Part shown: one piece after another, positions 62,976-63,494 of the stretch | How the letters are laid out: each line of letters begins with the position of its first letter | Numbering within the stretch: position 1 is the stretch's first letter | Origin: Felis catus | Taxonomy: Eukaryota | Assembly: GCF_018350175.1 (NCBI RefSeq) | Contig: NC_058383.1 | Coordinates: 41,168,001-41,232,000, forward strand | Length of the DNA: 64,000 nucleotides | Direction of reading: 5' to 3' | Translations under genes and position numbers: made by a program | The notes under the pieces: generated by a model | Database searches by the model: none | Seen by the model: only the letters and a program-made list of their open reading frames with translations | What the model was told of the DNA's origin: nothing

Positions 62976-63105
62976 GTTTTCGGATGTCATTCTGGCAACA
63001 ATTTTGGCAACCAAGTCTGAAATGTGTGGCCAAAAATTTGAACTGAAGATTGATAACGTGCGGTTTGTTGGGCACCCGACACTGCTGCAGCATGCTCTGG
63101 GGCAG
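62976..63105 (+). CDS. NPRL3: NPRL3 third coding exon; gene continues beyond window
   Basis: aag|GTTTTCG...GGGCAG|gtatgg, 130 nt; [43 protein letters not shown]. Confidence 0.96.
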
Positions 63106-63494
63106 GTATGGCCCTCCCTGGGCAGGTAGGGTTCTCCCCGGGCAGGTATGGCCCTCCCTGGGCAGGTAGGGTTCTCCCCGGGCAGGTATCGCCCTCCCTG
63201 GACAGGTAGGGTTCTCCCCGGGCAGATATGGCCCTCCCTGGGCAGATGTGGCTCTCCCCAGGCAAGTAGGGTTCTCCCTGGGCAGGTATGGCCCTCTCCG
63301 GGCAAGTAGGGTTCTGCCTGGGCAGGTATGGCCCTCCCCGGGCAGGTAGGGTTCTCCCCGGGCAGGTGTGGCCCTCCCCAGGCAGGTAGGGTTCTCCCCG
63401 GTCAGGTATGGCCCTCCCCGGACAGGAATGGCCTTCCCAGGCAGGTATGGCCCTACCTGGGCAGGTAAGGTTCTCCCCCGGCAGACATGGCCCA
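63101..63494 (+). repeat. 20-bp minisatellite (19 full units + partial) of A (GGCAGGTATGGCCCTCCCTG) and B (GGCAGGTAGGGTTCTCCCCG) types, mostly alternating
   Basis: 20-bp periodicity read directly; first unit spans the exon/intron junction. Confidence 0.97.

Follow-up and report, generated by a model that had tools for sequence, protein, structure and literature searches.

Reiteration of the exon 4 splice donor of NPRL3 by a 20-bp minisatellite in Felis catus: a ladder of probable latent pseudo-donors

One coding exon of NPRL3 in the cat ends inside the first unit of a minisatellite whose later units repeat the splice donor of that exon. This arrangement raises the question of whether the copies compete with the authentic 5′ splice site, such that the array governs how much productive NPRL3 mRNA is made, or whether they are silent by-products of repeat growth. 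The locus was examined in a 64,000-nucleotide stretch of Felis catus DNA (GCF_018350175.1, contig NC_058383.1, positions 41,168,001 to 41,232,000 of the forward strand), which is called the window here; positions are those of the window unless another sequence is named, and the features are collected in Table 1.

Table 1. Coordinates of NPRL3 exons, array, splice sites and codons
Feature	Position	Strand	Remarks
Initial NPRL3 coding segment (start codon to donor), 118 bp	49749..49866	+	
Preceding NPRL3 coding exon, 70 bp	54515..54584	+	
NPRL3 coding exon, 130 bp	62976..63105	+	Residues 64-106; human exon 4, c.189-318
Minisatellite, 20 units x 20 bp, A/B units forming a 40-bp higher-order repeat	63101..63493	+	First unit spans the NPRL3 exon 4 donor
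Authentic 5′ splice site, CAG/GTATGG	63103..63111	+	Junction 63105|63106
ATG in A-type unit	63108..63110	+	G at -3 and +4; recurs in later A units (63108-63449)
Nearest extra donor (+20), CAG/GTAGGG	63123..63131	+	
In-frame TAG	63127..63129	+	Retained on use of any of the 14 GT donors at +40 and beyond
Units without GT	7 and 8 (63221..63260), 17 (at 63421), 20 (at 63480)	+	
Top U1 match of the array (+359), CAG/GTAAGG	63462..63470	+	Unit 19; 8/9 consensus matches

The exon at 62976-63105 was assigned to NPRL3 by its translation, which is identical to the human protein (PDB 6ces_M, 64-106) at 43 of 43 residues. Based on the lengths of the upstream coding exons (118 bp plus 70 bp), the exon ending at 63105 corresponds to c.189-318 and thus to human exon 4. 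The following two NPRL3 exons are located just beyond the window (L002:2794-2868 and 9693-9846), and the intron carrying the array measures 1,688 bp up to the next exon. In the human gene, residue Q106 lies in exon 4 and the Q106* allele, which segregates with focal epilepsy, has reduced mRNA and protein (PMC8633433); c.318+1G>C, at the exon 4 donor, is among the catalogued NPRL3 splice variants (PMC13240258). The reduction by Q106* agrees with the dosage premise on which the original prediction of a splicing dial at this locus was built. Two other tandem repeats were noticed in the window: a GC-rich 82-bp unit (2.5 copies, 49532-49740), which ends 8 bp ahead of the NPRL3 start codon, near the acceptor region, and an AT-rich degenerate repeat with periods of 46-55 bp (11607-11872).

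Tandem Repeats Finder reported the array (63100-63493; period 20, 19.8 copies, score 410), and cutting at every unit start gave 20 units, one of which was 19 bp long. Unit 1 (63101-63120) straddles the junction 63105|63106, so that the first unit is indeed the GGCAG/GTATGG junction, reiterated every 20 bp, as had been proposed. The 20 exonic bases upstream of unit 1 match it at just 3 positions, which indicates that the repeat starts at the junction without extending into the exon. Two unit types were distinguished, A with the donor CAG/GTATGG, as at the true site, and B with CAG/GTAGGG, the two differing at 4 of 20 positions. Self-identity was 250/280 at period 40 versus 224/300 at period 20, in keeping with the predicted 40-bp A/B higher-order repeat, and this suggests duplication of a 20-mer, divergence of the copies and later spread of the pair as a 40-mer. 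Variants common to units 9 and 11, 7 and 8, and 8 and 14 suggest later block duplications. The array has a G+C content of 67% and is situated 206 kb from the contig end; minisatellites are common in subtelomeric DNA. It was the sole array with more than 6 copies and a period of at least 9 bp in the 112 kb examined.

Of 227 words sampled from a 2,051-bp stretch, of which the array makes up about 19%, a fraction of 0.99 was found in each of five public data sets, whose kind is not stated (two studies, 4+1) and one of which may be the source sample itself; an assembly artefact is thus unlikely. Fourteen public entries labelled RNA or possibly RNA contained 0.72-0.94 of the words of this mostly intronic stretch; they may be DNA and do not bear on the use of the donors. 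Membership of a dispersed repeat family was considered and set aside, since a search of the cat's own genome, weak in that common words were skipped, returned the NPRL3 array locus alone (two overlapping matches, one candidate). A sense-strand G-quadruplex was likewise rejected: among the 19 G-runs of the array, four never occurred within 12-nt loops. The minus strand of 63101-63493 carries 26 G-runs; five loose G-quadruplex patterns of four runs each, with loops of at most 20 nt, were observed there and could aid instability of the repeat.

GT was retained in 16 of the 20 units. This count had been given before for competing donors and is right in itself, except that it includes the authentic site, leaving 15 competitors (15 of 19 copies). 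The shuffled array contained CA[G/A]/GT 0.56 times on average and at most 6 times in 10,000 shuffles, as compared with 16 in the real one. Of the 15 extra sites, 5 are CAG/GTATGG, the 9-mer of the true site, 5 are CAG/GTAGGG, 2 are CAA/GTAGGG, and CAG/GTATCG, CAG/GTGTGG and CAG/GTAAGG (63464|63465) occur once each. Strong donor-like sites numbered 11 in the 394 bp of the array and 4 in 8,117 bp of neighbouring intron. Pairing with the U1 5′ end gave the true site, like the five copies that share its 9-mer, a duplex energy of -7.7 kcal/mol. The value was -11.2 for the CAG/GTAGGG copies (five) and -11.5 for unit 19, which is one mismatch away from the 9-nt consensus. The last value and the 8/9 consensus matches uphold the earlier view that CAG/GTAAGG is nearer to the U1 consensus than the true donor is. 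In terms of duplex energy, six copies, including that at +20, out-pair the true donor for U1, and some leak is therefore plausible. RNA structure was considered as a reason for a preference for the true donor and was not relied on: the probability of local unfolding at the true site, computed over 63063-63620, depended on the setting (0.0025, 0.054 and 0.0003 in three window settings), and the site ranked with the most open ones in one of them but in neither of the other two, so that accessibility did not single it out.

The outcome of donor use was derived in silico. Of the 16 donors, only the authentic one leaves an uninterrupted reading frame across the two exons that follow. Use of the +20 site would cause a frameshift, and 21 new codons would be read before a stop within the next exon; the other 14 extra donors sit behind the TAG, and the +359 donor, for example, would yield a 489-nt exon that includes this codon. 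Our translation thus agrees with the predicted frameshift at +20 and with the inclusion of the stop by every later donor. In all 15 cases, the premature stop is far upstream of later junctions, as it is in regulated unproductive splicing (poison events), and NPRL3 would be truncated shortly past residue 106. Taken with human Q106* and c.318+1G>C, heavy use of the copies would accordingly amount to loss of function. It was also noticed that the next exon starts with GT (L002:2794-2799), by which the spliced mRNA again reads AG/GT at the junction, and that the +20 product equals the normal product with one unit length inserted. Alignment of short reads could therefore go wrong at the junctions between exon 4 and the next exon.

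The TAG had been described as a poison stop. As a distinctive feature this did not hold, since 5,369 of 18,993 24-nt windows of the local intron (28%) contain a stop and, according to Nevo et al. 2012, an in-frame stop precedes more than 98% of the latent donors in human genes (PMC3510495); a stop at this place is the default expectation, and its reading as a designed poison was discarded. Latent 5′ splice sites as described there are likewise consensus-like intronic donors behind an in-frame stop whose products are subject to nonsense-mediated decay, as is found here for 14 of the 15 extra donors. The latent sites are scattered and arise by chance, whereas the NPRL3 copies are dense and derive from duplication of the true donor.

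Minisatellites that span a splice junction have precedents. Those in human F7 (intron 7, a 37-bp VNTR), IFI6, CBS, LMNB2 and PDGF are treated in Borensztajn et al. 2006 (PMC1557585), and the original statement that no description was known is therefore wrong for the kind. The donor-reiterating minisatellite has been known as a kind since at least 2006, and the NPRL3 array is a further member of it. A description of this array itself was not found in a literature search at the level of titles and abstract openings that covered mainly journals open without subscription. In the F7 array, as in that of NPRL3, unit 1 spans the exon-intron boundary and intact donor copies run into the intron. The two differ in that the F7 array consists of 5-9 units of 37 bp, which repeat a weak donor unchanged and for which use and polymorphism have been measured, whereas the NPRL3 array has 20 units of 20 bp in two alternating types behind a strong donor, and six of its copies surpass the true site in U1 pairing.

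The results on F7 in that paper (PMC1557585) bear directly on the question, although the assays were non-quantitative RT-PCR on minigenes. There, 1) the most upstream donor alone was used, 2) the choice of site was unchanged by loss or gain of units in minigenes with 1-6 and 8-12 monomers, 3) copies improved to a consensus value (CV) of 91 did not compete, 4) pseudo-sites with a perfect consensus captured 70-90% of splicing, and 5) G triplets had no role. The IFI6 (6-16) intron 2 and CBS intron 13 arrays, with 25 and 15-20 units, respectively, resemble that of NPRL3 in being long ladders of pseudo-donors behind an authentic site, and for them use of the first two pseudo-sites as well has been shown. 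The LMNB2 (100-bp) and PDGF intron 4 (81-bp) arrays also reiterate a donor, in 10-18 units that are longer than the 20 bp of NPRL3, and in these the authentic site alone was reported to be used.

Based on these comparisons, we consider it probable that the array is a tolerated product of slippage, that its copies are latent pseudo-donors and that splicing occurs nearly always at 63105. Some 20 bp, by chance including the exon 4 donor, would have been duplicated in tandem on the spot and then amplified by slippage or unequal exchange in GC-rich DNA, first as the 20-mer and then as the A/B 40-mer, a history suggested by the shared variants. The copies look functional and would nevertheless remain latent: by analogy with F7 and the latent sites, the spliceosome would define the 130-nt exon and commit to the first donor it meets, so that nearly all mRNA would be normal, while a small leak at +20 or +40 would carry an early stop and be removed by nonsense-mediated decay. 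The array would thus be tolerated, not selected. This reading is favoured by F7, where the same anatomy goes with use of the upstream-most site irrespective of unit number and of copies at CV 91, by the sole use of the authentic site in LMNB2 and PDGF, by the rule that latent donors follow a stop, and by the lack of a second locus of the repeat (one candidate scored, common words skipped). The dosage sensitivity of NPRL3, which would make a heavy leak costly, also counts for it. Against it stand the six extra donors, the nearest included, that out-pair the true site for U1, the two pseudo-sites used in IFI6 and CBS, and the share taken by perfect sites in F7, to which unit 19 comes within one mismatch.

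A larger, incidental leak could also be argued, in which, as in IFI6 and CBS, the +20 and +40 sites would be used, here for more than about 5% of splicing, and the resulting mRNA would decay. Such a leak would be a by-product that depends mostly on how the two or three units nearest the exon read instead of on array length, and it may rise under stress; heat shock activates latent sites, up to 15% in CAD (PMC3510495). The better U1 pairing at +20 and the proximal pseudo-sites of IFI6 and CBS speak for it, but no such use was seen in F7, LMNB2 or PDGF. We regard a leak of this size as unlikely, though with a chance that deserves to be reckoned with.

If the copies were of use to the animal, their donors might be expected to be better conserved than the rest of the unit. 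When the 19 copies were compared with the consensus of their own type, GT cells had changed in 5 of 38 cases versus 29 of 342 other cells (Fisher p 0.36), and cells of the donor from -3 to +6 in 11 of 171 versus 23 of 209 others (p 0.15), in a decay test that is weak because the 19 copies are not independent and positions -3, -2 and +6 are invariant. Manual placement of the gap in unit 17 inflates the changes outside the donor and so tilts the comparison toward conservation of the donor; even so, significance was not reached. Selection preserving the donors is accordingly unsupported, GT having decayed no less than the rest of the unit in this weak test, and this again favours the reading as a tolerated array. 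Overall, signs of function in the array are weak.

The original prediction further held that each unit resembles an overlapping acceptor and donor, and named recursive splicing as an option, in which the CAG of a unit accepts the true donor and re-creates a donor, which is then joined to the next exon. The part of this claim concerning the motif stood: Y5+N0-4YAG/GT, the minimal recursive motif used in PMC10156609, is present at 11 of the 15 extra sites and absent from the other 1,293 bp of the intron. The part requiring an acceptor did not, for no YTNAY branch point was found in the array, and TNA occurred 15-44 nt upstream in only 1 of the 11 motif sites, as compared with YTNAY in two of three real acceptors of the gene and TNA in the third. 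The tracts are C-rich and U-poor relative to those acceptors, with 10-12 pyrimidines and 3-5 T in the 20 nt ahead of AG (7 units) versus 13-16 and 6-11 (three real acceptors). In addition, three of the 11 sites are less than 60 nt from the donor, and the host intron is merely 1,688 bp long. We judge recursive use extremely improbable. It would leave a normal mRNA, with the intermediate step invisible in it, and therefore could not tune decay.

A different role, as an alternative first exon, was considered in view of the ATG that most A units contain. From such an ATG, six codons precede the next donor, in frame with the next exon, and for five of these units that donor is intact. In total, 11 stop-free, in-frame pairs of ATG and donor were counted in the array sequence, all with G at -3 and +4, and the next exon contains an in-frame Met121 with A at -3. 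Transcription would then begin in or just before the array, a copy would serve as donor, and translation from an A-unit ATG or Met121 would give an N-terminally shortened NPRL3. A human NPRL3 minisatellite (Bertuzzi et al. 2020, Hum Mutat 41:807) reportedly hosts an alternative start site, with expression following repeat number. It shares with the cat array the gene and the fact of being a minisatellite said to affect expression, and differs in concerning the start of transcription rather than a ladder of donors. The 11 pairs, this human case and clusters of GATA and AP1 motifs in the flanking introns favour a first exon here, but a unit length of 20 bp by itself accounts for the in-frame spacing, with no need of selection, and the human repeat is in another intron, presumably intron 3. 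Such a first exon is, in our estimate, highly improbable.

Erythroid enhancers lie within NPRL3. In the next intron but one, past the window (L002:8719-8855), GATA, CACC, two AP1/NF-E2-type motifs and a second GATA were observed, the layout of the major alpha-globin enhancer (MCS-R2/HS-40), itself located in an NPRL3 intron. Two GATA motifs 55 bp apart were also noticed about 0.8 kb upstream of exon 4 (62154-62214), and, judging from its position, this pair is possibly another alpha-globin enhancer element.

The boldest reading is the one in which the array is a selected rheostat, its length or composition setting the share of unproductive NPRL3 mRNA and hence mTORC1 tone. In its favour, all 15 extra donors lead in silico to a premature stop, NPRL3 is dosage sensitive, the human genome is rich in tandem repeats with a link to splicing (9,537 loci; PMC10078293), and a different minisatellite in human NPRL3 is said to drive expression by repeat number. 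No reiterated donors were described in the donor passages of PMC10078293 (12 of 19 places). The rheostat is opposed by the lack of effect of unit number in F7, by GT being kept no better than other positions, and by the default expectation of a stop ahead of any latent donor, and it has in our view a very low probability. A broader version, a lineage-specific GATOR1 dial, would combine splicing at +20 or later and decay, in a share set by alleles that differ in the order or number of units, with a possible erythroid first exon, made of an ATG and donor pair, that gives a shortened NPRL3; the better U1 pairing of the B units would, in this version, direct a real share of the pre-mRNA to +20 or later. 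This combination is very unlikely, and the dosage dial as such is unsupported.

The tolerated array is of interest in itself as a natural test case for the choice of 5′ splice sites, with 15 copies of a donor laid out in 20-nt steps within a dosage-sensitive epilepsy gene. As six of the copies match U1 better than the authentic site does, the rule that the most upstream site wins is put to the test under harder conditions than in F7. If the leak were substantial and dependent on the allele, the array would act as an inherited influence on mTORC1 signalling in this lineage, and only then would it be of biological import.
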